Source: Candidatus Woesebacteria bacterium | GTDB lineage: Bacteria; Patescibacteriota; Microgenomatia; UBA8517 | Assembly (NCBI GenBank): GCA_016432525.1 | Contig: CP066693.1 | Location: 160,815 to 224,814 of the forward strand | Length of the DNA stretch: 64,000 bases | Direction: 5' to 3' | Part shown: piece after piece, positions 8,447 through 63,938 of the stretch | How positions within the stretch are numbered: the first letter of the stretch is position 1 | How the letters are laid out: every line of letters begins with the position of its first letter | Program-made: the position numbers and the translations under genes | The notes under the pieces: model-generated | Told to the model about the DNA's origin: nothing | Seen by the model: only the letters and a program-made list of their open reading frames with translations | The model's database searches: none

Positions 8447-8794
8447 ATGAATAATTTACTAGCTCAAGCCACTAAGATTCCCGAAGTCCCTCTCCAGGTT
8501 GGTCAAAACACAACTGTCAGTATTCCCTCTTTAAAAGGCTTTGAGACTCTTTTTGCAAATGTCCTTCAAGTTGCAATAGCTCTAGCAGGTATTGGTTTTT
8601 TTGTAATGCTTCTCATAGGTGGCTTTAAATATCTAACATCTGGCGGCGATCCAAAAGCAGTTGAGTCAGCCAAAAACACTCTTACTTGGGCAATTTTCGG
8701 TCTAGTTGCTGTTGCTCTCGCCTTTCTGATTCTTCTTGCAATTGCAAACTTTACTGGAGTCACAAGTATTCTAAATTTCCAGGTAGCCCCATGA
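8447..8794 (+). CDS. VirB2/TrbC-like T4SS pilin paralog (subfamily 2)
   Basis: MNNLLAQATK leader; TM1-SGGDPKAVESA-TM2; stop overlaps start of the hydrolase gene (ATGA at 8791-8794). Confidence 0.55.
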   Translation: MNNLLAQATKIPEVPLQVGQNTTVSIPSLKGFETLFANVLQVAIALAGIGFFVMLLIGGFKYLTSGGDPKAVESAKNTLTWAIFGLVAVALAFLILLAIANFTGVTSILNFQVAP

Positions 8795-19217: not shown

Positions 19218-19911
19218 AAATTTTACAAACAAAATACCAATATTAAATATTCCAGATGTTCCAATTGTTGCAACAACCCAAGATCATCTTCCAATTGAAG
19301 ATATTGTAGATAACATGCTTATCTACAAAGATGGTGGAGCAGCAATTGTATTAGAATCAACATCTTTAAACTTTGGTCTTCTCTCTGATAACGAGCAAGA
19401 AGCAGTAATCGCAGCTTACGCAGCACTCCTAAATAGCCTTTCCTTTTCAATTCAAATTCTAGTCCGATCTCAAAGAAAAGATATTTCAAATTACTTACAG
19501 TATTTAGAAAAAGAAGGAGCAAAAATCCAAAATCCCAAACTCCAGGTCTTAATGACTGGTTACAGAAACTTCATATCAGAAACTATTAAAAAGAAAAATG
19601 TACTAGGAAAACGCTTTTTTATAATTCTCATGTTTTCTTCTCTAGAGCTGGGAGTTACAAAATCCTTTATGGCTTTCACTAAAAGATCAAAGATCCTTCC
19701 TTTTTCAAAAGAATATGTCATAAAAAAAGCAAAAATCACTCTCTATCCCAGAAAAGACCACATTACCCGCCAGGCATCTCGCTTGGGTTTAAAACTCAAA
19801 GAGTTAGATTCAAACGAGTTGGTAGAATTATTCTATGATATCTATAATCCAAAGCCACCGGCTACATCAATAAGAGAGGAGAAAGATGAATCCACAACAA
19901 TCACAAGCTAA
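19204..19911 (+). CDS. Hypothetical protein in T4SS-like cluster (immediately upstream of and overlapping VirB4 start)
   Basis: 235-aa ORF, translationally coupled (overlaps) on both sides; no recognizable motif. Confidence 0.4.
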   Translation: MKSFKNFTNKIPILNIPDVPIVATTQDHLPIEDIVDNMLIYKDGGAAIVLESTSLNFGLLSDNEQEAVIAAYAALLNSLSFSIQILVRSQRKDISNYLQYLEKEGAKIQNPKLQVLMTGYRNFISETIKKKNVLGKRFFIILMFSSLELGVTKSFMAFTKRSKILPFSKEYVIKKAKITLYPRKDHITRQASRLGLKLKELDSNELVELFYDIYNPKPPATSIREEKDESTTITS

Positions 19912-22900
19912 TCCACCAGTCAAAGTTAAATGGGTTCCTCCAAAATCAGAAAAGCCACCCATTTCAGATCTTCAAAAAGAAATTGAAGAGAAGAAACTAG
20001 TTCCAGAGGATCTAATTTCTCCACCAAATCTAGAGGTTGATTTTGATTTCATAAAAATTGGGGACGTTTATCTTCGAACCCTTTTTATAGGAGGCTATCC
20101 CCGCTTTGTAACAGCAGGCTGGCTAGAACCAGTCATTAATTTCAATCACTCAATGGACATTTCTTTTTACATTTATCCAGTCGAGGGAAAATCCGTTCTT
20201 GATGACCTTCGTCGAAAAATTGCAGAAATGGAAGCAGAAATCTCCACTGACTTGGAAAGAGGAAAAATTGTGAATCCATCAACTACAGCCAAACTGGAAG
20301 ACGCCAAAGTTTTACAAGATCAACTTGTTAAAGGCATTGAGCGCTTCTTTGAATTTTCTTTCTATATCACAATTCCAGCCCCGTCTTTAGAAGAGCTCAA
20401 CCACTTAACTCGTCAAGTTGAATCCACCCTAGGAGCTTTATTAATTGTGGCAAAAAGAGCAGCACTTGATATGGAAAATGGCTTTGCATCAACTGCTCCC
20501 TTTGGAATTGACAGATTAGCTATAACAAGAAATATGGATACAACCTCTCTTGCAACGACTTTTCCCTTCACCTCAGCTGAACTTTCATCAGATGAAGGAA
20601 TTCTCTATGGAATAAACCCTCAAAACGATTCATTCATAATTTTTGACCGTTTCTCTTTGGAAAATTCAAATATGACAATTTTTGCAACCTCTGGAGCTGG
20701 AAAATCAACGAGCTACAACGATCCTGTTCTTTTTGACAATGGATCCGGTCCAAAGTTAGAAAAAATTGGAAAACTCATAGAAAATTTAATGCAAAAAAAT
20801 AAAATCACACAATTAGATCAAGAGTCTGAGGGTGTAATTAATCCTAATCTAAAAATATTTAGTTTTGATAAAAATCTTAAAACAAAATGGTCAGACGTAA
20901 AAATCGCTGCCAGAAAATTGTCGCCAAACGATATGTACCAAATCATAACTCAAAGTGGCCGCGAAATTACAATAACAGGTGATCATTGTCTGGTAGCACT
21001 AAAAAACGGTAAGGTAGTAACAATCAAAGGGAAAGCCGCAAAGATTGGCAATTACCTACCAGTACCAAGGCTAATTGAAAATTTAGAAGTTAAAAACAAT
21101 TTTTCTCAAGAATTATTGACTCTATTGGGACTAATAACTAGTGAGGGGCATACAAGAAAGGAGTTTGTTTCAATATATAATACAGACAAATTCGTACTAA
21201 AAAAGATCGAGAAATGCGCTCTTAAACTAGGTTTCTATGTCTCCCCAATATCTAAAGACAAAAAAATTAGAGGGTATTACTTAAGACCAGCAGACAAAGC
21301 AAGAATTTTAATTAAAAAATTTGGTGGTTTTGGAAGTTCAAAAGAAAAAAGAGTGCCTTCAATAATATTTTCTCTTCCAAATAGCGAAATTGCCCAATAC
21401 TTAAAAGCCTACTTTGAAGGAGATGGTGGTTGTGAAGACCACGAAATAACTGCAACAACAAAGTCAAAAAACCTTGCTTCAGATCTCTCTTATCTTCTCT
21501 TGCGCTTTGGAATAATTGCAAGAATAAAAACTAGAAAGAAAGCGGCAACAAATACTGTTGCCAAAACAAAAAGAAAATATTATCGAGTATCAATTTCTGG
21601 ACAAGACAACATCAAAAAATTTATTGACAACATAGGATTTTTGACTGAAGAAAAAAATACCAAGGCACAAAAACTACTGAAAGCTGGCAACACTAATGTT
21701 GATATAATTCCAGAGATTGAGTCCATTTTCAAAGAAATATACCCCATACTCTACAATTCAGAAATTCCTGCACCCCAAAAGTTTTCAGAAATCAAACTAG
21801 GAATTTTTAAACCCTCGCGCCAAAACCTGTTAACCGTCATCGCTGAAATCGAAAAAAGAATCCAAGAAATCAAATCTTTAGAAACAGATGGACTGTCTAC
21901 TCTTAATACCTTAAAAATCTTAGAAGCAAAACGTCCACCCAAATTAAAGCCTGCACTTAAAATTATAAATACTGAGTATGGTTATAACTACACCCAGAAA
22001 GACATTACAGGAGCAGTCTATAGAAGCTTTCAAAAAACAGGTGAATCACTTATTAGATTCGATAAGTCACTTTGGTCAGCTATAACACAAGTAAATCAAA
22101 ATCCTCTATATCAAAAAGTACTTAATGCCCGAGAGTTTATAAATCAAAAATACGAAGAGAAGAAATTTAAATTAAAAGAGATAAAAGAAAAACTATCTTG
22201 GCTCAAAACTTTAGCGAACTCAGACCTTTTCTGGGATCCAATTGTAAAAATCAAGAAAATAAAATCAAAACATAAATATGTATATGACCTGGAAGTAGAC
22301 AATGCAGTTTTTATGGCTGGTCATGGTGGTCTTTTTATTCACAACTCTTTCTTTGTCAAACTTGAAGCTCTCCGCTCTTTAATGCTTGGAACTCAGATAA
22401 TAATTCTTGATCCAGAAAACGAATACAAAACTCTCTGTGAAGCCGTAGGTGGCGAATTTATTACTTTTTCTTTTTCCTCTCCTTCAAAAATTAACCCTTT
22501 TGACCTTTCAACAGTTTACGAAAAAGGTGAAAGTGCATTAGGTCTTAAAATTCTCTCTCTTCACTCGCTTTTTAAAATCATAATGGGTGCTCTTACTGCT
22601 ACCCAAGAAGCTATGCTTGATCGTGCAATAATTATGACTTACAAAGCAAAAGGAATAACTCAAGACCCTGAAACCCAAACAAAAGAGCCTCCTTTAATGG
22701 AAGATCTTTATAAGACTCTTATCGGAATGGAAGTTGCAGATGCGCTTGACATGGCAGCTCGTATTGAAAAATTTGTTAAAGGCTCATTTGTTGGAATTTT
22801 TGATCAGCAAACAAATGTTGATATCAAAAACCCATTCACAGTCTTTTCAGTCCGCGATCTTCAGGATGCACTTCGCCCTATCGCCATGTTTATAATTCTT

Positions 22901-23401
22901 GATTTTATCTGGACCAAAGTCAAAAAAGATTTAGCTCGAAGATTAATGATCGTCGATGAGGCATGGCACATGATGCGCTATGAAGACTCCGCCCAATTTT
23001 TATGGTCCATCGTCAAACGCGCCAGAAAATACTATCTAGGAATCACTACAATCACTCAAGACGTCGAAGATTTCTTAAGTCAGGACATTGGAAAAGCCGT
23101 TGTCACAAACTCAGCGCTTCGCGTTCTTCTTAAACAATCCCCTGCAGCAATTGATCGAGTCGGAGAAATTTTCTATTTATCCCAAGGTGAACGCCAACTT
23201 CTGCTAGCAGCAAATGTTGGAGAAGGGATTTTCTTTGCAGGACCCCATCATGCACCAATCAGAGTTGTCGCATCCCCTGAAGAATACAAACTTATTACAA
23301 CCAAGCCTCAAGAGCTTGTTACACAAAGCCAAAAACCAAAAGGGAGTGAATTTTCTCCATCAGAAGTAGTCACTGTAGTTAAAGAGTTCAATAAAACATA
23401 A
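19886..23401 (+). CDS. virB4: VirB4/TrbE-like T4SS ATPase interrupted by an intein
   Basis: Walker A FATSGAGKS(T) at 20693-20710. Extein resumes SFFVKLEALRS... at 22346, and Walker B-like MIVDEAWHMM follows downstream. Minus the intein the protein is ~625 aa, with the typical VirB4 C-terminal NTPase layout. Confidence 0.7.
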   Translation: MNPQQSQANPPVKVKWVPPKSEKPPISDLQKEIEEKKLVPEDLISPPNLEVDFDFIKIGDVYLRTLFIGGYPRFVTAGWLEPVINFNHSMDISFYIYPVEGKSVLDDLRRKIAEMEAEISTDLERGKIVNPSTTAKLEDAKVLQDQLVKGIERFFEFSFYITIPAPSLEELNHLTRQVESTLGALLIVAKRAALDMENGFASTAPFGIDRLAITRNMDTTSLATTFPFTSAELSSDEGILYGINPQNDSFIIFDRFSLENSNMTIFATSGAGKSTSYNDPVLFDNGSGPKLEKIGKLIENLMQKNKITQLDQESEGVINPNLKIFSFDKNLKTKWSDVKIAARKLSPNDMYQIITQSGREITITGDHCLVALKNGKVVTIKGKAAKIGNYLPVPRLIENLEVKNNFSQELLTLLGLITSEGHTRKEFVSIYNTDKFVLKKIEKCALKLGFYVSPISKDKKIRGYYLRPADKARILIKKFGGFGSSKEKRVPSIIFSLPNSEIAQYLKAYFEGDGGCEDHEITATTKSKNLASDLSYLLLRFGIIARIKTRKKAATNTVAKTKRKYYRVSISGQDNIKKFIDNIGFLTEEKNTKAQKLLKAGNTNVDIIPEIESIFKEIYPILYNSEIPAPQKFSEIKLGIFKPSRQNLLTVIAEIEKRIQEIKSLETDGLSTLNTLKILEAKRPPKLKPALKIINTEYGYNYTQKDITGAVYRSFQKTGESLIRFDKSLWSAITQVNQNPLYQKVLNAREFINQKYEEKKFKLKEIKEKLSWLKTLANSDLFWDPIVKIKKIKSKHKYVYDLEVDNAVFMAGHGGLFIHNSFFVKLEALRSLMLGTQIIILDPENEYKTLCEAVGGEFITFSFSSPSKINPFDLSTVYEKGESALGLKILSLHSLFKIIMGALTATQEAMLDRAIIMTYKAKGITQDPETQTKEPPLMEDLYKTLIGMEVADALDMAARIEKFVKGSFVGIFDQQTNVDIKNPFTVFSVRDLQDALRPIAMFIILDFIWTKVKKDLARRLMIVDEAWHMMRYEDSAQFLWSIVKRARKYYLGITTITQDVEDFLSQDIGKAVVTNSALRVLLKQSPAAIDRVGEIFYLSQGERQLLLAANVGEGIFFAGPHHAPIRVVASPEEYKLITTKPQELVTQSQKPKGSEFSPSEVVTVVKEFNKT
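20708..22345 (+). mobile_element. Intein (~545 aa) with LAGLIDADG homing endonuclease domain inserted in the VirB4 P-loop
   Basis: Begins with Ser right after GAGKS(T) (N-terminal boundary uncertain by one or two residues). Two LAGLIDADG-like motifs (LLTLLGLITSEGHT and IAQYLKAYFEGDGG). Ends ...LFIHN (His-Asn at 22340-22345), followed by +1 Ser of the extein. Confidence 0.7.
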
Positions 23402-50094: not shown

Positions 50095-50307
50095 CTACTT
50101 TGAAGCCTCCTTTTCTTTTTTAGAAGATTTGTCACCATCATCTTCTATCGCTTCAGTAAAATTCTTTTTAATTTTTTTAATCTCTCTAAAAGTCTCGCCC
50201 GCTCCTTTACTCAAATTGATAACTACTTTACTGCCAAAAAATACTATCAAAATTAAAGCAATAATTACAAGCTCTGTCGGGCTTATATTTTTTATAAAAT
50301 CAAGCAT
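50095..50307 (-). CDS. tatA: Twin-arginine translocase TatA/E-family protein
   Basis: MLDFIKNISPTELVIIALILIVFFGSKVV...LSKGAGETFREIKK. Confidence 0.65.
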   Translation of the reverse strand: MLDFIKNISPTELVIIALILIVFFGSKVVINLSKGAGETFREIKKIKKNFTEAIEDDGDKSSKKEKEASK

Positions 50308-50362: not shown

Positions 50363-50563
50363 CTACACTTTACTCATGGCCGTTGTAAACCAATAAGACC
50401 CGTTAAAATATTCAAGACTATTGGTTTGGGAGTTAAAGCCAAACGTTCCTCGTCTTGCTTTTTTTGGCCTGCTGCGATTAGTCCATGAAACAAGTGTCGG
50501 AAGACTGATTATCACGGATAAACCTTGACCAAGATCCATCAAGAGGGGTAATTTTTCTGCCAT
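50363..50563 (-). CDS. Stand-alone copy of the conserved C-terminal module of the S-P-S-[I/V] repeat protein (66 aa); possibly a gene fragment/cassette
   Basis: SWTNRSRPKKARRGTFGFNSQTNSLEYFNGSYW aligns residue by residue with SWNIAGRPKNVKKGTFGFNFQTNHLEYWNGSAW at the C-terminus of CDS 50580..52169. Confidence 0.45.
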   Translation of the reverse strand: MAEKLPLLMDLGQGLSVIISLPTLVSWTNRSRPKKARRGTFGFNSQTNSLEYFNGSYWFTTAMSKV

Positions 50564-50579
50564 CTGAAAGTATTATATA

Positions 50580-52169
50580 TTAAATTTTCTTCATTGGAAG
50601 TTTTAGCCAGGCTGATCCATTCCAATATTCCAAATGGTTTGTTTGGAAATTAAATCCAAACGTTCCCTTCTTTACATTTTTCGGTCTGCCGGCAATATTC
50701 CACGATGGGATTACCTTCTGTTCAATAGGACCAAATAATTGTTGAGTAGCTGTAATTTTGCGGCTAATGATCTGAGGATTTCTCATAAATATTGGTTTTT
50801 CTTCAACCAATGGCAATGGTAATTCGGCTACAGAAGGACTAGCTGATGGGGATGGACTTATGCCGGCGGAAGGGGATGCGGAAGGGGATGCGGAAGGGGA
50901 AGGACTACTTACACCAACTGATGGTGACACAGATGGTGAAGCGCTTGCTCCGGCCATAGAAGGGCTGGCTGAAGGACTAATACTGGGTGATATAGAATTC
51001 GGAGGTGAAATACTTGGAGAGATTGAAGCCGATGGAGATACACTCGGGCTGGCTGAAGGACTAATACTGGCGCTGGGAGAAATAGAAGGCGATCTTGACG
51101 GCGAGATTGATGCTGACGGTGACACAGATGGTGAAACACTTGCAGAGATGCTAGAAGAAAGAGATGGGCTAACAGATGGAGATATAGATGCTGATGGAGA
51201 GATTGAAGCCGATGGAGATACACTCGGGCTAACAGATCGAGAAACACTTGGTGAAGCAGACGGTGAAATACTTGGAGAGATTGACGGGGATGTGCTCGAA
51301 ACGGCTGATGGTGAAACAGAAGGGCTAATTGAGGGACTTATTGACAGACTAATAGATGGAGAGATTGATGCTGACGGTGACACAGATGGTGAAATACTTG
51401 GAGATCTTGAAGGTGAAACGCTTGGACTTGGAGACATTGAGGGGGAAATCGATGGTGATACTGATGGAGAGGTGCTTGGACTAGGCGAAACAGAAGGCGA
51501 GATACTCGGGCTAGATGAAGGAGAAATTGATGGCGAAGGAGATACAGACGGAGACACACTTGAGCTTGGTGAAACTGAAGGTGATACTGAAGAGCTGATA
51601 GACGGTGAGACAGAGGGCGAGATAGATGAGCTAATGGAAGGAGATACAGATGGGGAAGGTGAGATCGATGGACTAACCGAAGAACTGATGGATGGTGAAA
51701 TACTTGGACTTGGTGAAACTGACGGACTAATTGACGGACTTATAGATGGAGATATTGAAGGAGATGGTGAAACAGACGGCGATGCACTTACCCCAACTGA
51801 AGGTGAAACTGATGGTGAAATCGAAGGAGAAATTGATGGCGAAACAGATGGAGAGACAGATGGGGACGCACTTACACCAACTGATGGCGAAACCGAAGGA
51901 CTTATAGATGGTGAGACACTCGGACTTGGTGAAACAGAAGGGGAGATCGATGGTGATCTTGAAGGAGATACGCTTGGGCTAATGGAAGGAGATATAGATG
52001 AGGAAGGTGAAATAGATGGACTTACTGATGGTGAAATAGAGGGTGAAACACTTGGACTAGGTGAAACAGATGGACTAATTGACGGACTTACAGATGGTGA
52101 AATACTTGGGCTTGGTGAAACAGACGGACTTATTGATGGTGAAACAGAAGGAGAGATCGAAGGTGACAC
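50580..52169 (-). CDS. S-P-S-[I/V] tetrapeptide-repeat protein, segment C (repeat tract + conserved C-terminal domain)
   Basis: About 110 tandem SPS[IV] units then ...ELPLPLVEEKPIFMRNPQIISRK...KGTFGFNFQTNHLEYWNGSAWLKLPMKKI. GTG start lies 17 nt after the stop of segment B in the +2 frame. Confidence 0.55.
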   Translation of the reverse strand: MSPSISPSVSPSISPSVSPSPSISPSVSPSISPSVSPSPSVSPSISPSVSPSISPSSSISPSISPSVSPSRSPSISPSVSPSPSVSPSISPSVSPSVGVSASPSVSPSVSPSISPSISPSVSPSVGVSASPSVSPSPSISPSISPSISPSVSPSPSISPSISSSVSPSISPSPSVSPSISSSISPSVSPSISSSVSPSVSPSSSVSPSVSPSPSISPSSSPSISPSVSPSPSTSPSVSPSISPSMSPSPSVSPSRSPSISPSVSPSASISPSISLSISPSISPSVSPSAVSSTSPSISPSISPSASPSVSRSVSPSVSPSASISPSASISPSVSPSLSSSISASVSPSVSPSASISPSRSPSISPSASISPSASPSVSPSASISPSISPPNSISPSISPSASPSMAGASASPSVSPSVGVSSPSPSASPSASPSAGISPSPSASPSVAELPLPLVEEKPIFMRNPQIISRKITATQQLFGPIEQKVIPSWNIAGRPKNVKKGTFGFNFQTNHLEYWNGSAWLKLPMKKI

Positions 52170-53700
52170 TGACGGTGATGCACTTACTCCAATTGAGGGG
52201 AAACCGAAGGACTGATTGATGGACTAATAGAGGGTGAGATAGATGGTGATGGTGAAACAGATGGCGAAATACTTGGTGATCTCGAAGGTGAGACACTCGG
52301 ACTTGGTGAAACCGAGGGTGAAACAGATGGGCTGACAGAAGGAGATATGGAAGGTGATGGTGATGCGGATGGCGATATCGATGGTGATCTTGAAGGAGAT
52401 ACGCTTGGGCTAATGGAAGGTGATATTGATGGACTTGGAGAAACAGATGGAGAAATAGAGGGGCTAATTGATGGTGAAATACTTGGGCTTGGAGAAACCG
52501 AAGGACTGATTGATGGACTAATAGAGGGTGAAGCGCTTGGTGAAATACTTGGACTTAGAGAAGGTGAAACAGATGGACTAATTGACGGACTTACAGATGG
52601 TGAAATACTTGGGCTTGGTGAAACAGACGGACTTATTGATGGTGAAACAGAAGGAGAGATCGAAGGTGACACTGACGGTGATGCACTTACTCCAATTGAG
52701 GGGATATAGATGCCGAGGGTGATACAGAAGGCGAGACGCTCGGACTGATGGATGGAGAAACAGAGGGTGAAGGAGATACAGAAGGAGATACGCTTGGCGA
52801 GATAGATGGAGACACACTTGGACTAACTGATGGTGAAACACTTGGACTAGGAGAAACAGATGGTGATATTGATGGACTAATGGAAGGAGATATAGATGAG
52901 GAAGGTGAAATAGATGGACTTACTGATGGTGAAATAGAGGGTGAAACACTTGGACTTGGAGAAACCGAAGGACTGATTGACGGACTTACAGATGGCGAAA
53001 TACTCGGACTAACTGAAGGAGAGACACTTGGTGAAACCGAAGGACTTATAGATGGTGAAATACTAGGACTTGGTGAAACAGATGGCGAAATACTTGGCGA
53101 GATAGATGGAGACACACTTGGACTAGGTGAAACAGATGGACTAATGCTGGGTGATATTGATGGAGATATAGATGCCGAGGGTGATACAGAAGGCGAGATA
53201 CTCGGACTGATTGATGGAGAAATACTAGATGATGGTGAAACAGATGGACTAATTGACGGACTTACAGATGGAGATACACTCGGACTTGGTGAAACAGATG
53301 AACTAATAGATGGTGAAATAGAAGGTGAAACTGACGGACTAATACTTGGACTGACAGATGGTGATACTGATGGTGAGGGGGAAACAGATGGACTAATAGA
53401 TGGACTTATTGACGGTGAAAGAGATGGTGAGGGGGAAACAGATGGGGAGATTGAAGGGCTAACTGAAGGAGAAATGGATGGTGAAGGAGATACAGAAGGA
53501 GATACGCTTGGCGAGATAGATGGAGACACACTTGAACTTGGTGAAACAGAAGGGGAGATCGACGGTGACACTGATGGTGAAACAGATGAACTAATAGATG
53601 GTGAAATAGAAGGTGAAACTGACGGACTAATACTTGGACTGACAGATGGTGATACTGATGGTGAGGGGGAAACAGATGGACTAATAGATGGTGAAAATGA
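50830..53700. repeat. ~2.9-kb degenerate 12-nt (4-codon) tandem repeat tract encoding (S-P-S-[I/V])n on the minus strand
   Basis: Plus-strand units of the form ga[tc]gg[tcag]ga[ag]a[ct][at]ga[at]gg...; every frame on both strands is open, giving the mirrored D/E/G-rich and H/L-rich ORFs in the track. Exact 142-nt repeats at 52060-52201 and 52563-52704. Confidence 0.9.
52184..52672 (-). CDS. S-P-S-[I/V] repeat protein, segment B (pure repeat, 162 aa)
   Basis: Begins GTG and ends SPQLE-stop inside an exact 142-nt repeat. Reading frame of A continues into B and C if one nucleotide is restored at each junction. Confidence 0.45.
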
Positions 53701-54375
53701 AGACCCTGCCTCATTCCAAGTAAGTGTTATTGCGCCAACAGCACCTGTTCCGCCTCTTTTGACGGTTGTTCCTGAATTACTTCCCGCGCCGCCTCCACCA
53801 CCGCCAGGATATACACCGTTAGAACCGTTAGCATTAGCTGCTCCACCACTTCCACCGCTTCCGCCGCCTCCTGCGCCGCTTCCGCCGTTGGGCGGTGCAC
53901 CATTGGTACCGCTGGCTCCATTCTGGGCATTTCCAGCTGCAGCTCCTCCACCTCCGCCTACGGTGGTTGCATTCGCAGCGCCATTTCCACCATTATTTCC
54001 AGCAGGAATTGAATTAACTCCGTTTCCTGCAGCACCTCCAGCACCACTTCTGTTTCCGGCGCCACCACCTGAAGCTTCAACCTCATTATTGTTATAACCA
54101 GACTGCCCACCTGGAGTTCCGTTAGTATTGTTGGTACTTGCCCCTGCACCTCCAACGCCGATTAGAATAGTCAAGACATCGTTTGGATTTGCAACGACAC
54201 TATTGATAGTATAAGCTCCACCTCCGCCTCCTCCAGCACCATGAGCGCCTGTAGTTCTACCGTAAGAACCACCTCCACCTCCGCCTCCCCAAACTTCAAC
54301 AGTAACATTACCACTTATATTGCTTGGAACTGTCCAGTTATTATTATTGTTGAAGGTGATTGTATTTTGGGCCAT
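52687..54375 (-). CDS. S-P-S-[I/V] repeat protein, segment A (Gly/Asn-rich N-terminal domain + repeat tract)
   Basis: Firm start (in-frame TAG two codons upstream): [39 protein letters not shown]...[12 protein letters not shown]. ~210-aa Gly/Asn/Ala-rich domain then ~85 SPS[IV] units. No signal peptide. Confidence 0.6.
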
Positions 54376-54450: not shown

Positions 54451-55704
54451 TTATCCTTTAATGACGTACCATATCCGCCCCGGCCCAATTGCCGGCTTTA
54501 GCAGACAATCAAAAAGGGCTTTCTTAACCGTCTCATGATCATAATCATGTCCGCAAAATAACTTCTTACACTTCGGAAGCCAGGCCTTTACATCCTTCAC
54601 GACCGAATCATAATCATGAGAAGCATCAATCCAGACCATATCAATAGAATTGTCCTCAAACTTTTCAGATGCGGTTATACTATCCAATCGAATAAGATCA
54701 ACATTGGAAAAATCTTTTGTATTTTTTATAAATTCTTTCTCAACATCCACGGCCGGTGAATCTCCAACTTTAGGTATAAGAAACCTCTCCGGAACAGTGG
54801 CGTATCCGTCGGATGGATTTGCTTGAAAATTATCGATTGCATATACCTTGCCCTTGCAAGCACTAGCCAGAGCGTGTGCGTCTCTCCCTTTCCAAGCGCC
54901 AATTTCAGCAACACAGTTCATATCTTTGGCCATGAGGTAGAGCCACGACAGTTCAGGTAAATCTGTCCATCCCTCAATCTTCGGGTCTTTATAATCCGTT
55001 ATTTCCCATGTGGCGAGAATATTTTTCATCAATTCCACTTTTTCCTTTATATTGATGGTATATTGGTGCCAGAAATAGTTTCCGCCGCCGCGTTCTTCTA
55101 TAATCTTATCCACTCTCTTAAACTTTAAACCAAAACGGGCGATATTTCGAGAAAGCATATAATCATCTATCAAATGCTCGCGAGTAATTACCGTATTCAA
55201 TTCATTCTGGATTGGAAATATATTCTTTAATGCCTCTTCGTAAGGTATATCTAAAGGATGCCAGAGATCCAGACACCAATCAGAAGCAATTGTCAGCCAA
55301 TTACAAGAACCAATATGCCGTCCATCCCGACGGAAATAATCATCATATCGCCAACGAATATTTGCCATGTCATTACCATTATGGCAAACCGTGTCTTTAG
55401 AAATAAACTCTGTTACATCAAACATATCCGGGTGAACTAAAGCATCGGAGTCAATATAAATATTCCAATCATTTTTCATTTGCCGGCCGAGGTCATAAAT
55501 TTGCATCTTCTCATATACCGGTGGAAATTTGGGAAACTTGCGCTCTTTGATAATATAAAAATCAGCCCCTATTTTATCTGCGTAGCGCTTGATCAAGGGA
55601 TAAGTAAATTCTGTTATTTCCGGAGCATACCCGTCAACATTGAGAGTAAAAATAGTTTTTTTTAATTTTCTTTGACCCATACTATCTGTATTATACAATT
55701 CCAT
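54451..55704 (-). CDS. Bifunctional-looking protein: N-terminal GT-A-like nucleotide-sugar transferase domain (DxD) + C-terminal class I SAM-dependent methyltransferase (Methyltransf_24/TylF-like)
   Basis: N-terminus ...NIYIDSDALVHPDMF (DxD). C-terminus CVAEIGAWKGRDAHALA...IDMVWIDASHDYDSVVKDV...LFCGHDYD, characteristic of macrocin-O-methyltransferase-like MTases. Confidence 0.5.
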   Translation of the reverse strand: MELYNTDSMGQRKLKKTIFTLNVDGYAPEITEFTYPLIKRYADKIGADFYIIKERKFPKFPPVYEKMQIYDLGRQMKNDWNIYIDSDALVHPDMFDVTEFISKDTVCHNGNDMANIRWRYDDYFRRDGRHIGSCNWLTIASDWCLDLWHPLDIPYEEALKNIFPIQNELNTVITREHLIDDYMLSRNIARFGLKFKRVDKIIEERGGGNYFWHQYTINIKEKVELMKNILATWEITDYKDPKIEGWTDLPELSWLYLMAKDMNCVAEIGAWKGRDAHALASACKGKVYAIDNFQANPSDGYATVPERFLIPKVGDSPAVDVEKEFIKNTKDFSNVDLIRLDSITASEKFEDNSIDMVWIDASHDYDSVVKDVKAWLPKCKKLFCGHDYDHETVKKALFDCLLKPAIGPGRIWYVIKG

Positions 55705-55709
55705 TTATA

Positions 55710-56816
55710 TTAAAGTAGACGACCTGCATTAATTCGAGAATCGTAAATGGTTTTTGTAATAAATCTGTCAGGCTGAGGCTCACTTTCTTCAGATTTGATA
55801 TCATTACTTGCCCCATTAAATTTAAAAGTATTTGCTTTCAACTTTGCCAGCTCCGCTTCCGTCCAACCCTTAACCGGCCAAAATTTTTCCAGAAGCCAGC
55901 TTAGAGGATGAACCTGTTTGGGCCAATTATTATTAAAAAAAAGTTCCCGGGCATAGGTCCTGGCTTTTTCTTGGTCCTTATTAGACATCGGGTAGGGGAA
56001 ACCAAAATCTCCCCCTTGGGTTCTAAACATATGAGCATACCACGTCTTATGATTGACGAAAACTTGTCCTCCAGAAAGCCAAGTTTTGACTGCCACTTCA
56101 ATTCCTTGGGAACCCCAACCTCCGAAATTCTCATCGCAGACATCTAATTGCCAGTATTTCTCTCGAGTCAGCATCCAAGCTGATCCCTGAAGAGACATTG
56201 TCTCGGTTAGTCCTTTTCCTTTTTTATCTTTTTCGTATTGTGGTCTATGCTTCCAGTCTTCAAAATATTGAAAGTGGGGAGTTGAATCAAAACAATAGGA
56301 AGTGCTCTGGGGATTGTGCTTTCCGGCCCAAATCAATTTTCTAATAAACTTTTTACTGTCACAAGGTTTACCAGTTTTTCTAAAATTAGTCTCACGACAT
56401 TTAGTTGGAGTTGGCCCTTGGTACCATTTCTTTCCACATTTTAGGCATTTCCAATCAAACGCCCAGAGATTTCTCATTATAGGGACCATTGTTACATTGT
56501 CTCCTGTAATTTTAAATGCCTCGAGCATTTTGCGGTCAAATCCTTTGTCAAAAGAACAATGAGCATCACACTTCATAACGTATTTTGCCCGGGAGAGCTT
56601 GCAAGCAAGATTAGTAGCTGCTCTTTGTCCAATTGACTCCGGAAGATAAACAACATTAACCCGGTCATTCTGCGTGATTGGCGGCTCTGCAAGCTTACCA
56701 TCCAAGACGACAATAATTTCTGTATCAGCTTCAATGTTTACCAAAGCATCGTCTACAGTGTTTTTGAGAAACATCTCATTGCGAGCAGGAATTAAGATAC
56801 TCAAATCATGGTCCAT
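55710..56816 (-). CDS. GT-A fold glycosyltransferase with DxH and WG..E motifs reminiscent of polypeptide GalNAc-transferase (GT27/GT7/GT2 clade)
   Basis: LSILIPARNE (GT2-type N-terminus), VVLDG, YVMKCDAHCSF (compare ppGalNAc-T LDAHCE) and FGGWGSQGIEVAVKTWLSGGQVFVNHKTWYAHMFR (compare WGGENLEISFRVWQCGG...GHVFR). Soluble, no TM. Confidence 0.5.
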   Translation of the reverse strand: MDHDLSILIPARNEMFLKNTVDDALVNIEADTEIIVVLDGKLAEPPITQNDRVNVVYLPESIGQRAATNLACKLSRAKYVMKCDAHCSFDKGFDRKMLEAFKITGDNVTMVPIMRNLWAFDWKCLKCGKKWYQGPTPTKCRETNFRKTGKPCDSKKFIRKLIWAGKHNPQSTSYCFDSTPHFQYFEDWKHRPQYEKDKKGKGLTETMSLQGSAWMLTREKYWQLDVCDENFGGWGSQGIEVAVKTWLSGGQVFVNHKTWYAHMFRTQGGDFGFPYPMSNKDQEKARTYARELFFNNNWPKQVHPLSWLLEKFWPVKGWTEAELAKLKANTFKFNGASNDIKSEESEPQPDRFITKTIYDSRINAGRLL

Positions 56817-56867
56817 GTTTTGTTATGCAAAATTCTAAGCTTAACTGTTGCGCAAAGCAAGTGAAGA

Positions 56868-57401
56868 CTATGCTTTTTGGAACTTGAAGTAATAGTGTTG
56901 ACGATCATATTTATATATCGGACCGTCTACTAACCTAAAACCTGCATTATCAACAGTGATTACAAGGTCATTTGGCGTCCATGTGTGGTAACGCTGACCA
57001 GGCTGTGTAAACCTTCCACCTGATGAAATGCTTACGTAAAAGTATTTTTTAATGACACGCCTTGCTTCTGACAATGCCTTTTTGAAGTTGCTAATATATT
57101 CCAAAGTGTCTGACATTAGAGCTGAATCAAATTGCCCTATTTTATAAGGAAGACGGGTGGCGTTTCCTAAATCGACCTTGACGCCCTTTTCAGCTGCAAG
57201 TTTGATAGCGTAAGGATCATTGTCAACTCCTTTTATGGTAAGAACATGGCTAATTAAGCCATCGCCAGCACCGATATCAATGGTATTTTCCTCGCGAACG
57301 TATCTACTTAAGAATTGGACATGCCTCACATATCGTTGCTTTGCTCCAGCATACCAATCCCAATGATACGCTCCAAGCTTTTTATAGGGAGTTGTTACCA
57401 T
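56868..57401 (-). CDS. Class I SAM-dependent methyltransferase
   Basis: Motif I IDIGAGDGLISHVL; post-I acidic residue; 177 aa. Confidence 0.6.
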   Translation of the reverse strand: MVTTPYKKLGAYHWDWYAGAKQRYVRHVQFLSRYVREENTIDIGAGDGLISHVLTIKGVDNDPYAIKLAAEKGVKVDLGNATRLPYKIGQFDSALMSDTLEYISNFKKALSEARRVIKKYFYVSISSGGRFTQPGQRYHTWTPNDLVITVDNAGFRLVDGPIYKYDRQHYYFKFQKA

Positions 57402-57447
57402 CTGTATAATTTATAATACATCAATCATGGTTTGACAATGGTGACTA

Positions 57448-58026
57448 TTAATATTTTTTTCTAACAATAATTAATATGTCACGTTTTCTGTTGTCAGGAA
57501 ATTTAAAAACTTCACAGTTATACTCTGTTAATTCGTTCTTGATGCAATCCGGACGGTTGGAGTCTTCAATTACATAGATAACGTCTTTTTTAAGAAGGGG
57601 CATAAGAGTGCAAACTGCTTGTAATTGAAATCGTTCATTGTGAGGTCCATCGTCAATTACAAGATCTATATCTGAGCCTATTTCTTTTATCAGATTTTGC
57701 AAGTTGGGGATTCGTGACGTACTTGATAAGATTGTTTTTATTCTGTCAGTTTGGAAAATAGTGCTTGGGTGTCGGTCTACGCCATAAATTTGGGCATTTG
57801 GGAAAAAATCTCGCCACATCAAAAGACTTGCGCCTGTTTGATAGTGTTTTGGAACATATTGCATTGTATATTTGCTACCAATGCCTAATTCTAAGATTTT
57901 TTTAAATTTTTCTTTTTTGTCTTTTAGGAGTTGGTAGTATACAGGAGTGTAGTTATGTCCAAGTTGAGGGCACTTATCGGTTCCGTATTTATAAGCTAAT
58001 TCGCAAAGCGGTGTTTGATTTTTCAT
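57448..58026 (-). CDS. Class I SAM-dependent methyltransferase
   Basis: ILELGIGSKYT motif I, ...IYGVDRHP..., DLVIDDGPH. Confidence 0.55.
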   Translation of the reverse strand: MKNQTPLCELAYKYGTDKCPQLGHNYTPVYYQLLKDKKEKFKKILELGIGSKYTMQYVPKHYQTGASLLMWRDFFPNAQIYGVDRHPSTIFQTDRIKTILSSTSRIPNLQNLIKEIGSDIDLVIDDGPHNERFQLQAVCTLMPLLKKDVIYVIEDSNRPDCIKNELTEYNCEVFKFPDNRKRDILIIVRKKY

Positions 58027-58865
58027 ATGATTTTATATTTATAAAATAAGTCTCTTAATCTCTCATTAACTAAGACTTTGTTTAACTTATTTTTGCCAAA
58101 GACGCAAACACCAATATTATCATTGCCCAATTCCACCTCTCTTTTGTCAAAAGGATGGAAATGGATAACCTTAAGAGGCTTTTTAGCCTCTTCGTAACAA
58201 ACAGAAATATTTCTTTTCCTGGTCGCAAAATTGTAAGTAATATTTAATTTTTTAATAAACTCATTCATATTACTTCTATTTCTTCTAGTTAATGCTAAGA
58301 GAGCTACTTCTTCGTTAGATTGATATTGATAAACCTTGTCTTTTATCAATCTGAAAATAAATTCAGAATCTTTGGTAAAAAAGATACTTCCAGTACTCCA
58401 CCATCTGTCATGAGATTCGTTGATGGTAGTTTTTCCATAACCTGTTAAAGCAAACGGAAAATTCCCCAAATTAAGCTCTTCCTCGGTAATTTTCTCTAAT
58501 TGGAAGGCATCTAGATCATGAAACCACCAAAGATCATCTCCAATTAAGCCTTTGTCAAAAAGATAAAGTATTGCAAGGATTTTGGTTGCCCTCTTTTTTA
58601 TTTCGCAGAAAAGTTCATCGGGCACAACCATGGATTTGATTCCCATGTATTCATAATCAAAATTAGTTATAAATATAATATCTTTGGGTTTCCAACCCAA
58701 CTCTAAGCTATTTTCAATCTGAATTTTTGCCAAAATTTCACTTTCTTTATTCCACTCATCTTCAGCAAAACATTTTTGGGGATTAAGATAAATAAGTAAA
58801 TTTTTCATGACAACACCTCCTTCAAGTTCCAACCAGGTATTTTGTCTATTGTTGTTTCGATCCAA
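58023..58865 (-). CDS. Hypothetical protein, possible GT-like enzyme (HDLDAF DxD-like motif)
   Basis: Soluble 260-280 aa. Start likely MKNLLIYLNPQK (about 58806) to avoid overlap with upstream gene. Assignment weak. Confidence 0.35.
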   Translation of the reverse strand: MDRNNNRQNTWLELEGGVVMKNLLIYLNPQKCFAEDEWNKESEILAKIQIENSLELGWKPKDIIFITNFDYEYMGIKSMVVPDELFCEIKKRATKILAILYLFDKGLIGDDLWWFHDLDAFQLEKITEEELNLGNFPFALTGYGKTTINESHDRWWSTGSIFFTKDSEFIFRLIKDKVYQYQSNEEVALLALTRRNRSNMNEFIKKLNITYNFATRKRNISVCYEEAKKPLKVIHFHPFDKREVELGNDNIGVCVFGKNKLNKVLVNERLRDLFYKYKII

Positions 58866-60151: not shown

Positions 60152-61717
60152 ATGATAATGAAAATAGTTGGGTTTCAATCAGGCCATGACGTAGCTTATT
60201 GCATTTTAGAAAATGGTATTCCAATTCTTCATGAAGAATTGGAAAGATTTAGTAGAAGGAAAATGGAAGTGGGGGATGGATTAAAATTTTTCTTTTCAAG
60301 ATTTAGTGAGAATACCAACGATATAAAATATTTCACCTTTGGAAATCTAAACGGCAGGACTGGTAAATGGCAGAGTCGTTGTGGTGAAAAAGAAAGCGAT
60401 GACAAAATGAAAAAAATTTTAAGAGAAAATCACGGCTCTTTTTATGAATTTCCACATCATTTATGCCACGCTGCTAACGCCTTTTTTACCAGCAGTTTTG
60501 ATAGATCTTTAATTATTACTCTAGACGGCGGAGGATTTGAAGCAGACGATTCAGTGACGTCGTTTACCATAAGTGAAGGGATTGGCAATAAAATCAAAAG
60601 AATAAAGGTATTTCCCATCTCAGAAATTGATTTTGGTGGCCTTTGGAATGATGCAACTAAAAATATATTTAGTTTATCAGTCGGCCCTCCGAAAGGCAGT
60701 CAAGAAGGTACTGTTATGGCAATGGTAGCTCTCGGCGAACCAAAATATCTTAATCTTTTTAATCCGTATAGGCGAAGTAAATTACACTCAATTGCTAATT
60801 TGTCGGAGCAGGAAAAATTTAATGTTGCTACATCTTTGCAAAAGTTTACAGAAGATACATTTTTAAATTATGTATCAAAATACATTAAAAAATCAGGTCA
60901 CGAAAATATTTGTTTTTCAGGAGGCGTGTCATTAAATAGTGTCATGTTAGGCAAACTTAAAAGTTGGTTCCCTCAAATCAAAAACGTTTTTTGTGACCCT
61001 GTTCCATATGACGCAGGTCTAGCTTTGGGTTCTGCTCGTTATCTCTGGCATCATGTCTTAGAATATCCACGAATTAAAGATATTAAAAACATGCCCCCAT
61101 ATTTAGGAAAAATATATTTAAAAAAAGATATAAAAAGTGCTTGTAAATCTTATATAAATAAAATTAAAGTGAAGAAAGTTGATGATGATAAGGTTGTAAA
61201 ATTAATTGACGATCAAAAAATAGTATCTGTTTTTGGTGGGGGATCAGAAAGTGGGAGGAGGGCGCTTGGAAATAGAAGCATTTTAGCTGATCCAAGAAAT
61301 CCTGAAATGAAGAAAATTATAAATGAAAAAGTAAAACACCGAGAGTGGTTTAGACCTTTTGCTCCATCGATTTTAGAAGAAAAAGTAACTGACTGGTTTG
61401 AGGATAATTACAAAAGTCCTTATATGTCTTTTGCAGTAAAGTTTAAAAAAGAAAAAAGAAATCAAGTACCTGCTGTCGTTCATTATGATGGTACTGGAAG
61501 ACTCCAGACTGTTAATGAAGTCTTAAGTCCTTGGTATTACAACTTTATAAAAAAATGGGAGTTGATATCAGGTGTGCCGATTTTATTAAATACTAGCTTC
61601 AACGATAGTGAACCAATTGTAGAGACCCCAGAAGATGCAATAAGGTGTTTTTTGGGAACTCAAATAGATTATTTATATTTTTTTGATTATGGCTTATTAG
61701 TTGAGAAATTAATTTAG
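60152..61717 (+). CDS. Carbamoyltransferase (NodU/CmcH family)
   Basis: N-terminus MKIVGFQSGHDVAYCILENG (Kae1-like carbamoyltransferase N-domain), conserved GGVSLNSV and C-terminal carbamoyltransferase domain (FRPFAPSILEE). Confidence 0.7.
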   Translation: MIMKIVGFQSGHDVAYCILENGIPILHEELERFSRRKMEVGDGLKFFFSRFSENTNDIKYFTFGNLNGRTGKWQSRCGEKESDDKMKKILRENHGSFYEFPHHLCHAANAFFTSSFDRSLIITLDGGGFEADDSVTSFTISEGIGNKIKRIKVFPISEIDFGGLWNDATKNIFSLSVGPPKGSQEGTVMAMVALGEPKYLNLFNPYRRSKLHSIANLSEQEKFNVATSLQKFTEDTFLNYVSKYIKKSGHENICFSGGVSLNSVMLGKLKSWFPQIKNVFCDPVPYDAGLALGSARYLWHHVLEYPRIKDIKNMPPYLGKIYLKKDIKSACKSYINKIKVKKVDDDKVVKLIDDQKIVSVFGGGSESGRRALGNRSILADPRNPEMKKIINEKVKHREWFRPFAPSILEEKVTDWFEDNYKSPYMSFAVKFKKEKRNQVPAVVHYDGTGRLQTVNEVLSPWYYNFIKKWELISGVPILLNTSFNDSEPIVETPEDAIRCFLGTQIDYLYFFDYGLLVEKLI

Positions 61718-62823
61718 AACTTAACTAGTTCTGGAAAAGTATCTGGATCTTTTGGATCATATATTTCATTAATCCAAAATATTGTTAATAGATCTTTCTT
61801 TCCAATATTTTTGATTGAATGGGTATGAAATGTTGGCATATCGATATACACAGGTCGTTTCCCAGAAACTTTGTATGTATAAACCTTTTTGGAAAATAAT
61901 CTTCTTATTTTTATTTCTGCCTTACCTTTAATTACACAAAAACGTTCAATTTTTCGGGTATGATAATGATTTCCTCTCACTATGTTTGGGTGAGTTGTAG
62001 AAAAAGAAATTTGACCGCGTGTTTTGGTTTTGACAACTTCAACAAAAGCTCCACGCTCATCTTTTTTCAGATCTAAATTTACTGGAAAATGATTAGGATA
62101 AAGATAAGAACGAAAAGTGTTAAATAACTGAAGTTCGAAATTATTTTTAAATTTGGGAAAAATATCAAAAAAATACACGTCCCTAAAATTTTTCAATAAA
62201 GAGTAAATATCAGTTAGTTGCATTTTTTTGCCATTTGGAATAATTGTTTTAGAAGATTTTTTCTTAAATAAGCTAGTAATTAAGCAACATATATCTTGAA
62301 TATAAATTAGTTCAACTTTTGCATCAGGATTTACAACTGACTTTTTATTTTTTGAAAGTTCGTAAGCTAAGCTAGCAATAGCGGAATTATAGTAGGGTTG
62401 TGCAAATTCACCAAAAATATGTGGCGCAACTATTGAGAAAGTGGCAACTCTATTTTTTGTACCCCAATCTAGGATCATTTTTTCAGAGTCTCTCTTTGAA
62501 CGTCCATAAGCTGTGTTTCTTGTATTGTGGGTCGAAGACAAAAAAATAATTTTCGGTCTTTTATTTATCTTATCAAGAGTAGTTAGTATTGTTTTTGTTA
62601 ACTTGGTATTAATTTCGTATATTTCTTTTTCTTCTCCACGGTTTAATCCAGCTAAATGGACTACGATATCACATCTTTTAAGTTTTTTTGCAAGTTTTTC
62701 AGAAGTAGAGAAATCAGATTTTTGTACGGAAATTGGTTTATATTTATCTCTTTGTCCATATAAAAAGAAACGCAAATGAGTCCCAACAAATCCTGAAGCG
62801 CCTGTTATTCCTACTCGTACCAT
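61714..62823 (-). CDS. Bifunctional NAD-dependent sugar epimerase/dehydratase (N-terminal Rossmann) + cupin sugar 3,4-ketoisomerase/3,5-epimerase-like (C-terminal)
   Basis: MVRVGITGASGFVGTHL Rossmann GxxGxxG; C-terminal GAFVEVVKT...RGNHYHTRKIERFCVIKGKAEI cupin motif. Confidence 0.6.
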   Translation of the reverse strand: MVRVGITGASGFVGTHLRFFLYGQRDKYKPISVQKSDFSTSEKLAKKLKRCDIVVHLAGLNRGEEKEIYEINTKLTKTILTTLDKINKRPKIIFLSSTHNTRNTAYGRSKRDSEKMILDWGTKNRVATFSIVAPHIFGEFAQPYYNSAIASLAYELSKNKKSVVNPDAKVELIYIQDICCLITSLFKKKSSKTIIPNGKKMQLTDIYSLLKNFRDVYFFDIFPKFKNNFELQLFNTFRSYLYPNHFPVNLDLKKDERGAFVEVVKTKTRGQISFSTTHPNIVRGNHYHTRKIERFCVIKGKAEIKIRRLFSKKVYTYKVSGKRPVYIDMPTFHTHSIKNIGKKDLLTIFWINEIYDPKDPDTFPELVKF

Positions 62824-63938
62824 ACAACTCTTTTGATGTAGTTTATATAACTAAGTATGATCCGCAAGACCTTCTGGGAAACATGAGGATGTGAGTATTC
62901 TTGAGATACTGTTGGTTTATATCCATCACTTTGTTGTTTTTTAGTTAAGTTTATTGATTGCAAAACTCTCTCTGGGTCAAGTCCTGACATAATAACGGCC
63001 GCCTCATCCATAGCTTCAGGTCTTTCGTGGGCTTCACGAAGGTTAATTGCTGGAAAACCAATAATAGAGGATTCTTCGCTAATTGTTCCAGAGTCTGAAA
63101 GCGTACAAAAAGCATTTATCTGAAGATTTAAGTAGTCAAAAAAGCCTAATGGTTTTAAAACTCGAACAAGTCTAGGTAGTTTTTTATTGATTGATTTGAT
63201 GCGTGCGAGCGTTCTTGGATGACAAGAAAAAATAATCGGCATTTTATATTCTTTTGTAAGTTTATCTAATGTGTCATATAGTTTACTAAAATTTATCGGT
63301 GAATCGACATTTTCTTCTCTGTGAACTGATAATACAAAATATTTTTCTTTTAGAATTTTTAATTTTTTAAGAATGTTTGATTTATCGATTTCTTTTTTAT
63401 GTTTGTTTAAAACCTCATACATAGGAGAACCCGTTTTTATAATTCGATCGGAACTTAACCCTTCACGTAATAAATTTTGGCGCGCAAGCTCAGAGTAAGG
63501 CATATTAATATCGCTTAAGTGATCTATAAGTCGGCGATTTATCTCCTCAGGCACTCTAAAATCAAAACATCTATTGCCGGCCTCCATATGGAAAATTGGA
63601 ATTTTTCTACGTTTTGCAGCATATGAAGACATGGAGCTGTTGGTGTCTCCCAAAACAAGAAATGCATCTGGCTTTTCTTTTTCTAATATTTTATCCATCC
63701 CAGTGATAATGTTACCTACTGTGATTGTTGCTGTTTTTCCTATAGAGTTTAAAAAATAGTCCGGCTTTCTTAAATCTAAATTGTCAAAAAAAATTTGGGA
63801 AAGTTCATAATCATAATTTTGACCTGTATGAACAAAAATGTGATCAACATGTTTATCTAATTCTTTTATTATTTCTGATAATCTAATAATCTCAGGTCGG
63901 GTTCCTACAACTGTTAATACTTTTAATTTCTTATTCAT
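62811..63938 (-). CDS. wecB: UDP-N-acetylglucosamine 2-epimerase (non-hydrolysing)
   Basis: MNKKLKVLTVVGTRPEIIRLSEII...HTGQNYDYELSQIFF...LVLGDTNS family signature. Confidence 0.8.
   Translation of the reverse strand: MNKKLKVLTVVGTRPEIIRLSEIIKELDKHVDHIFVHTGQNYDYELSQIFFDNLDLRKPDYFLNSIGKTATITVGNIITGMDKILEKEKPDAFLVLGDTNSSMSSYAAKRRKIPIFHMEAGNRCFDFRVPEEINRRLIDHLSDINMPYSELARQNLLREGLSSDRIIKTGSPMYEVLNKHKKEIDKSNILKKLKILKEKYFVLSVHREENVDSPINFSKLYDTLDKLTKEYKMPIIFSCHPRTLARIKSINKKLPRLVRVLKPLGFFDYLNLQINAFCTLSDSGTISEESSIIGFPAINLREAHERPEAMDEAAVIMSGLDPERVLQSINLTKKQQSDGYKPTVSQEYSHPHVSQKVLRIILSYINYIKRVVWYE

Follow-up and report, generated by a model that had tools for sequence, protein, structure and literature searches.

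A giant Ser/Pro-repeat protein gene split into three reading frames by two identical one-base lesions in a Candidatus Woesebacteria genome

We analysed a 64-kb stretch of DNA from a Candidatus Woesebacteria bacterium (contig CP066693.1, positions 160,815 to 224,814; the whole stretch is called the window below), in which three collinear open reading frames (ORFs), A, B and C, run on the minus strand from 54375 down to 50580. These are the parts of a single ancestral ORF for a giant Ser/Pro-repeat protein, which is interrupted by two identical -1 lesions, one in each of two exact copies of a 143-nt repeat, and their separation is a derived state. The original prediction, made from the letters of the window, had read the locus as a one-base deletion that was copied within a repeat and split a single gene, and it is supported by repair of the two sites, by in-frame paralogs of the junction module and by 89 related loci, all continuous. 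We regard the split as an ordinary gene disruption or a sequence error of a known kind, with no new mechanism. The features on which the analysis bears are as follows.

50580..54375, minus strand: whole disrupted gene, a 1265-aa ORF once 1 nt is added at each of two sites
52687..54375, minus strand: segment A, 562 aa, ATG start, Gly_rich_2 domain and repeats, ending in SISPQLE-TAA (TAA at 52689-52687)
52184..52672, minus strand: segment B, 162 aa of pure SxSP repeats, in frame -1 (= +2) relative to A, ending in SVSPQLE-TAA (52186-52184)
50580..52169, minus strand: segment C, 529 aa, repeats and a non-repetitive C-terminal part, in frame -1 relative to B, with a normal stop
52698..52699, minus strand: frameshift site 1, a base missing between plus-strand G52698 and A52699; coding strand TCC CCT ^CA ATT GGA
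52195..52196, minus strand: frameshift site 2, the same as site 1, between G52195 and A52196
52059..52201, no strand assigned: repeat copy 1, 143 nt exact, containing the B/C junction
52562..52704, no strand assigned: repeat copy 2, 143 nt exact, containing the A/B junction
51784..51883 (51883-51868 and 51799-51784), minus strand: two intact in-frame SPSVGVSASPS modules, which show the junction module without the missing base
53716..54348, minus strand: N-terminal glycine-rich domain, Pfam PF21722 Gly_rich_2, aa 10-220, E 3.9e-13
50583..50798, minus strand: conserved C-terminal domain with the motif IPSWNxxGRPKxxKxGTFGFNFQTNxLEYWNGSxWLKLPMKKI

One ancestral reading frame and two identical lesions

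The internal stops of A and B are both TAA, and the GTG with which B and C open lies 14 nt past the preceding stop, or 17 nt counted from the first TAA base. A direct ORF check thus agreed with the layout first described, in which A and B end in SPQLE and a stop and a GTG restarts 17 nt on in the +2 frame; in that frame, the GTG of B is no more than the earliest start codon to follow a stop, and likewise for C. At both junctions the coding strand reads TCC CCT CAA TTG GAG TAA GTG, and insertion of one base after CCT turns this into CCT TCA ATT GGA GTA AGT GCA TCA CCG, or P-S-I-G-V-S-A-S-P. The sequence TCCCCT^CAATTGGAGTAAGTG is present in only two copies in the gene, and adding one T in each produces a single ORF of exactly 1265 aa, matching the fused product of about 1265 aa predicted for restoration of 1 nt per site. 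The junction alleles were defined as the strings TTGAGGGGA (the form without the extra base) and TTGAAGGGGA (the form carrying it), and a DNA-pattern search of JGI metagenome contigs for either form of the junction returned no match.

The array itself supplies the uninterrupted version of the module. Two intact SPSVGVSASPS modules lie 300-400 nt further downstream in the gene, with the DNA CC(A/T)TCAGTTGG(T/G)GTAAGTGC, that is, CC(A/T) TCA GTT GG(T/G) GTA AGT GC, and the two broken and two intact copies fall within about 900 nt of array. These in-frame GVSASP paralogs fit the proposal that the junction is a variant of a recurring SVGVSASPS unit. The lesion had been put down to deletion of a single T: one base is indeed missing, but a T doublet is not required, as one in-frame paralog reads CCA TCA, and the missing base is the third base of a Pro codon or the T of a Ser codon.

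The two repeat copies are spaced 503 nt apart, which is 2 mod 3. The pair had been given as 142 nt (52060-52201 and 52563-52704); the two are identical as stated, but the maximal exact repeat is 143 nt. Within the repeat, frameshift site 1 is 6 nt from the gene-5' edge, and the flanks beyond that edge read AACCGAAGG from 52202 onwards for copy 1 and TATAGATGCC from 52705 onwards for copy 2. Past the ends of this repeat the copies diverge within a few bases to the array background of 60-80% identity, and only three pairs of exact direct repeats of at least 60 nt occur in the 64-kb window, all of them in this gene (143, 117 and 80 nt). Because other array units are only 60-80% identical and long exact repeats are confined to the gene, the identity over 143 nt is not due to chance. 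A plain tandem duplication of 503 nt was considered and ruled out, since identity ends abruptly around 143 nt and segment B has no close copy elsewhere. Among the exact-repeat pairs in the gene, spacing is 0 mod 3 when no junction is crossed, 2 mod 3 when one is crossed and 1 mod 3 when both are; repeat spacing hence tracks the number of junctions crossed, and each junction is therefore a net -1 shift.

We compared the window with 89 related loci: three syntenic JGI loci fetched via their small called proteins, six from GTDB genomes and 80 further metagenome loci. In every one of the 89 the C-terminal domain ends one continuous SP-rich repeat frame, and none is split. In the three syntenic loci (L005, L007 and L008), where the giant gene is followed by a 66-67-aa paralog, TatA, TatA and TatC in that order, the sense strand holds one open frame of 1425, 2113 or 1887 codons with the same C-terminal domain at its end, and L007 also has a Gly_rich_2 head, with 45% identity to that of the window gene. 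The six GTDB loci (Levy-, Woese- and Collierbacteria and others) are continuous as well, two of them spanning 2078 and 989 codons and the others open to the contig end. The 80 further loci comprise 14 complete single ORFs (1026-2321 codons), 65 frames open to the contig start and one short ORF adjoining unrelated sequence, and no SP-rich stretch in another frame was found upstream in any of them. Overall, 18 relatives are complete, with 989-2321 open codons; each has a start codon close to the stop that lies upstream, and its N-terminal domain is unique. Had orthologs been broken at this site too, that would have pointed to a genuine multi-gene arrangement; all are in one frame, and the split in the window is therefore derived and not a conserved multi-gene layout.

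Two side observations concern the family as a whole. Heads vary greatly between genomes, with Gly_rich_2 in the window, L007 and L037 and unrelated domains elsewhere (complete loci among L029-L094); stalk type and the C-terminal ~45 aa are conserved despite this, a modular head-swap pattern that recalls receptor-binding fibres. In the locus with the short ORF (L062, 1-1230), no more than about 50 aa of repeat accompany the C-terminal domain and the sequence before them is unrelated and GC-rich; it may be a chimeric contig or a short member.

Architecture of the protein and a copied patch

The repaired protein consists of a head, a stalk and a tail. Its Gly_rich_2 match passes the gathering score (50.4 bits against a cut-off of 24.3) and spans profile positions 4-225 of 226, and the head also matches phrog_863 (PHROG 863, 'tail fiber assembly') at E 2.2e-10; a literature search on the Pfam names found nothing. 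The stalk is about 960 aa of (S-x-S-P)n, where x is Val or Ile; Ser makes up 50% of it and Pro 24%. Repeats are absent from the last ~80 residues, of which the last ~45 form the conserved motif, and AlphaFold models the final ~40 with confidence as three short strands (predicted local distance difference test score, pLDDT, 85-92). The C-terminal unit matches phrog_1325; no Pfam family scored above threshold for it and no sequence relative was found in the PDB. A fold search with the C-terminal model gave collagen XV/XVIII trimerisation domains and pieces of phage tail fibres or tailspikes as the nearest PDB entries, none of them significant (best E 0.26, template modelling (TM) score 0.3-0.55). 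No signal peptide, twin-arginine motif, hydrophobic segment or LPx[TSA]G was found in the 1265-aa protein, whose top 19-residue hydropathy is 1.19. The product is probably a long fibrous Ser/Pro-repeat protein of the cell surface, and probably glycosylated.

Exact copying within the gene appears to be usual in the family. The 18 complete orthologs contain 55 intragenic repeats that are exact over 40-223 nt, among them one of 179 nt at a spacing of 438 and one of 223 nt at a spacing of 636, and all 55 are spaced 0 mod 3. The 143-nt patch would accordingly be the usual product of intragenic copying, unusual only for its one-base lesion, and the in-frame spacing of the ortholog patches, taken with the lesion-carrying patch here, fits an order in which the lesion arose first and was then copied.

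We propose that the ancestral state was a single gene at 54375..50580 for a giant Ser/Pro-repeat protein with a Gly_rich_2 head, a ~960-aa stalk and a C-terminal beta domain. A base would have been lost from an SPS-(I/V)GVSASPS module, changing CCT TCA ATT GG into CCT CA ATT GG, which would shift the frame by -1 so that TAA is reached three codons on. A patch of ~143 nt carrying the lesion would then have been transferred to another, similar module at a distance of 168 codons, likely by the intragenic recombination or gene conversion that seems to scatter exact patches of 40-220 nt through the genes of the family. The outcome would be two identical breaks and three ORFs, with segment A alone as the product, consisting of the head and 337 aa of stalk. 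Frames B and C hold no further stops, and in the C-terminal domain every one of the 20 invariant columns of the family alignment (A1) is kept; the event should be recent because the two frames stay open and this domain remains unaltered at those columns.

Real lesion, artefact or functional break

Between a real mutation and an assembly or consensus error, we on balance favour a real lesion, present in the sequenced DNA and reflecting recent inactivation or truncation of the gene. Assembly, consensus or sequencing error, with a real gene that is intact and with the missing base(s) or the 143-nt identity introduced when the array was reconstructed, is possible and distinctly less probable. The evidence that separates these two comes from the assemblies, from the position of the site and from the state of the rest of the gene.

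Logan assemblies of SRR12113414 and SRR12113415 match the flanks on each side at 100% over 7.9-9.6 kb with no indel, and the Logan contigs stop at 53662, exactly where the k=31 repeat map of the window predicts. The runs are taken to be Illumina because one contig begins with an Illumina adapter: SRR12113415_28195 (L003, 1-22) opens with 22 nt of TruSeq adapter (TCAGACGTGTGCTCTTCCGATC) fused at window position 50306, in itself an adapter artefact. Illumina sequencing has a low indel error rate. No other split gene was seen in the window, where the overlapping ORF pairs that were checked are distinct genes. De Bruijn graph mis-joins would fall in shared k-mers and keep codon phase, and so should not be able to yield a 1-nt deletion outside a homopolymer. 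Moreover, copy-specific k-mers must carry the lesion at both copies because the site is only 6 nt from unique flank on one side. All of this argues against an artefact.

Several points weigh the other way, against a real lesion. The deletion is known at both sites from the assembled sequence alone, and the array, which is the sole part of the neighbourhood that the independent k=31 assemblies could not cross, is not assemblable at k=31 (the k=31 repeat map leaves junction unitigs of only about 56 nt), so that there is no independent assembly of the junctions. In the probable source study (PRJNA640378; He et al., 2021; PMC7906910), MEGAHIT, with a largest default k of 141, was followed by scaffolding with IDBA-UD. 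The 143-nt repeat is just above that k, and its two copies may have been joined by scaffolding via one graph node; both would then derive from one collapsed node and a single error would be shown twice, and the assembler could likewise have produced the exact identity of the copies and the number of 503-nt units. This argument is conditional because the link to that study is unconfirmed: it rests on locus-tag style only, the run numbers are absent from the supplements, and the text mentions no closed genomes. Finally, in a streamlined genome of 0.9 Mb, a 3.8-kb gene that carries two inactivating lesions and is otherwise undecayed, its downstream frames and C-terminal domain perfectly intact, resembles an error, as does the fact that such a break is found in 0 of the 89 related loci.

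Readings in which the break has a function, namely on/off switching, recoding or separate genes, jointly make up only the small remainder beyond the real lesion and the artefact. The least improbable is switching, in which the full-length fibre would be toggled either by gene conversion between the broken and the intact GVSASP modules of the gene or by slippage at the site. The two broken and two intact modules so close together, the frequent intragenic copying that exact patches indicate for the family, and the plausibility of a surface fibre as a target for variation are all in keeping with it. A recombinational switch in particular, in which gene conversion would move the lesion in and out of the array so that a population turns the fibre off, or to a head-only stub, and then on again, is a shade more improbable still; if true, an episymbiont of the candidate phyla radiation (CPR) would achieve phase variation through cassette conversion inside one gene. 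What makes switching so doubtful is that the gene would be turned on only if both lesions were repaired, that the 'off' state is found in none of the related loci, and that no invertase or dedicated recombination machinery was seen, although no search was aimed at such genes. As for slippage, slipped-strand phase variation needs a hypermutable tract, which means a homopolymer of about 7 bases or longer, or a short unit in several copies. The site, TCCCCT^CAATTGG, offers only C4 followed by a single T, and the slipped-strand option that was raised at the outset is accordingly disfavoured.

Programmed -1 ribosomal frameshifting is very unlikely. Here a P-site tRNA-Pro would slip from CCU to CCC in U-CCC-CUC-AA to give the products A, A+B and A+B+C, and a -1 slip at C CCU would indeed yield exactly the repaired protein, with a stop three codons after a signal that is present twice in identical form. 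However, there is no X XXY YYZ heptamer, the zero-frame codons CCU CAA allow a single P-site slip only, no Shine-Dalgarno-like stimulator lies upstream, and the 120 nt downstream are not more stably folded than shuffled sequence, with a minimum free energy of -8.2 kcal/mol compared to a shuffle mean of -11.8 kcal/mol (z = +1.33); nor does any relative have the two-frame arrangement. Least credible of all is a genuine three-gene arrangement with A, B and C each translated from its own start: the GTG 14 nt past the preceding stop would suit it for B and C, but these are only the first in-frame starts, GGAG lies 19 nt upstream, too far for a ribosome-binding site, B is 162 aa of pure repeat without a domain, and the orthologs are single ORFs.

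Annotation, known systems and genomic context

Current records hold almost nothing of this gene. Its C-terminal 68 aa are identical to the NCBI protein QQG47682.1 (HY044_01170, Candidatus Woesebacteria bacterium, 916,571-bp contig), and this stub is the sole gene product that searches returned; segments A, B and C each had no exact protein match on record. In related public contigs, gene callers took antisense ORFs, leaving a C-terminal stub of 51-113 aa of the real protein, and most short-read contigs break inside the array. The family is nearly absent in full length from protein databases because callers choose the antisense frame.

On the antisense strand of the SxSP array, frames stay open over hundreds of codons ('GETDGLIDG...'), in the window at 50860-52215, 52347-52709 and 52748-54097 on the plus strand and in relatives on the minus strand (L007 3452-6673; L008 3923-5443 and 6563-7972; L005 3379-4587). 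We considered whether the plus-strand 'GETDG...' ORFs of the window are real genes and ruled this out, since it is the minus-strand frame of the repeats that also encodes the Pfam head and the conserved tail, both here and in every relative.

The Ser/Pro-repeat family (1,000-2,300 aa) is common in Microgenomates-type genomes and lies beside TatA/TatC in the window and in the three syntenic loci. As a frameshift, the split is of minor weight: either a single Woesebacteria population has recently lost or truncated one fibre gene, or a genome that was deposited as complete contains a flaw. Either way, the record should hold one pseudogene or a repaired gene instead of a 68-aa stub.

The locus is closest to frameshift-disrupted genes for tandem-repeat surface proteins, with which it shares a missing base, an immediate in-frame stop, open downstream frames and intact orthologs, as well as the position of the lesion in an array homogenised by intragenic recombination. 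It differs from them in that the identical lesion is present twice, its patch having probably been copied. With phase-variable contingency loci it has in common that the frame of a probable surface-protein gene is shifted at a homopolymer run, but C4 with a single T behind it is far too short to slip often enough to be useful, length variants were not seen, and two sites must revert. The serine-rich repeat glycoproteins (SRRPs) of Gram-positive bacteria also have a very long Ser-rich S-x-S-x stalk and adjoining glycosyltransferase genes (here at 54451-56816); in contrast to these, every second x is Pro in the window protein, LPXTG, signal peptide and hydrophobic segment are lacking, and a Gly_rich_2 head is combined with a tail that is a small beta domain of another kind. 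The phrog_863 and phrog_1325 matches of head and tail and the nearest folds recall phage tail fibres or tailspikes and the collagen XV/XVIII trimerisation domains. This is a lead only, as the fold matches are not significant and the context is not that of a phage, with TatA/TatC, a YifB-like gene and glycan-synthesis genes as neighbours.

Directly downstream of the giant gene, in a position kept in the syntenic loci, is one further member of the C-terminal domain family, followed by TatA and TatC.

50363..50563, minus strand: stand-alone 66-aa paralog of the C-terminal domain

Paralogs of 66-67 aa with the motif GTFGFNxQTNxLEYxNGSxW stand between the giant gene and TatA/TatA/TatC in the window and at L005 5363-5563, L007 8360-8563 and L008 8172-8372. 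The 66-aa paralog matches phrog_1325. For DUF7360 (PF24059) the best score, 15.5 bits compared to a cut-off of 27.6, came from this paralog only, and two of nine family members match weakly.

The upstream neighbours of the giant gene are a GT2 glycosyltransferase and several methyltransferases. They belong to a series of glycan-type genes that lies immediately upstream of it, at 54451-58865 on the minus strand and at 60152-63938, comprising a methyltransferase with a weak, sub-threshold match to glycosyltransferase 21, GT2 and three more methyltransferases; Logan gene calls extend the run with a carbamoyltransferase and an epimerase. The products of these genes could modify the Ser-rich stalk. 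Elsewhere in the window, an ORF of 1171 aa at 19886-23401 on the plus strand encodes a TraG/VirB4-like P-loop ATPase into which an intein bearing a LAGLIDADG homing endonuclease is inserted (Pfam matches Intein_splicing, LAGLIDADG_3 and P-loop_TraG), and an ORF resembling a type IV secretion system (T4SS) pilin is present at 8447-8794.

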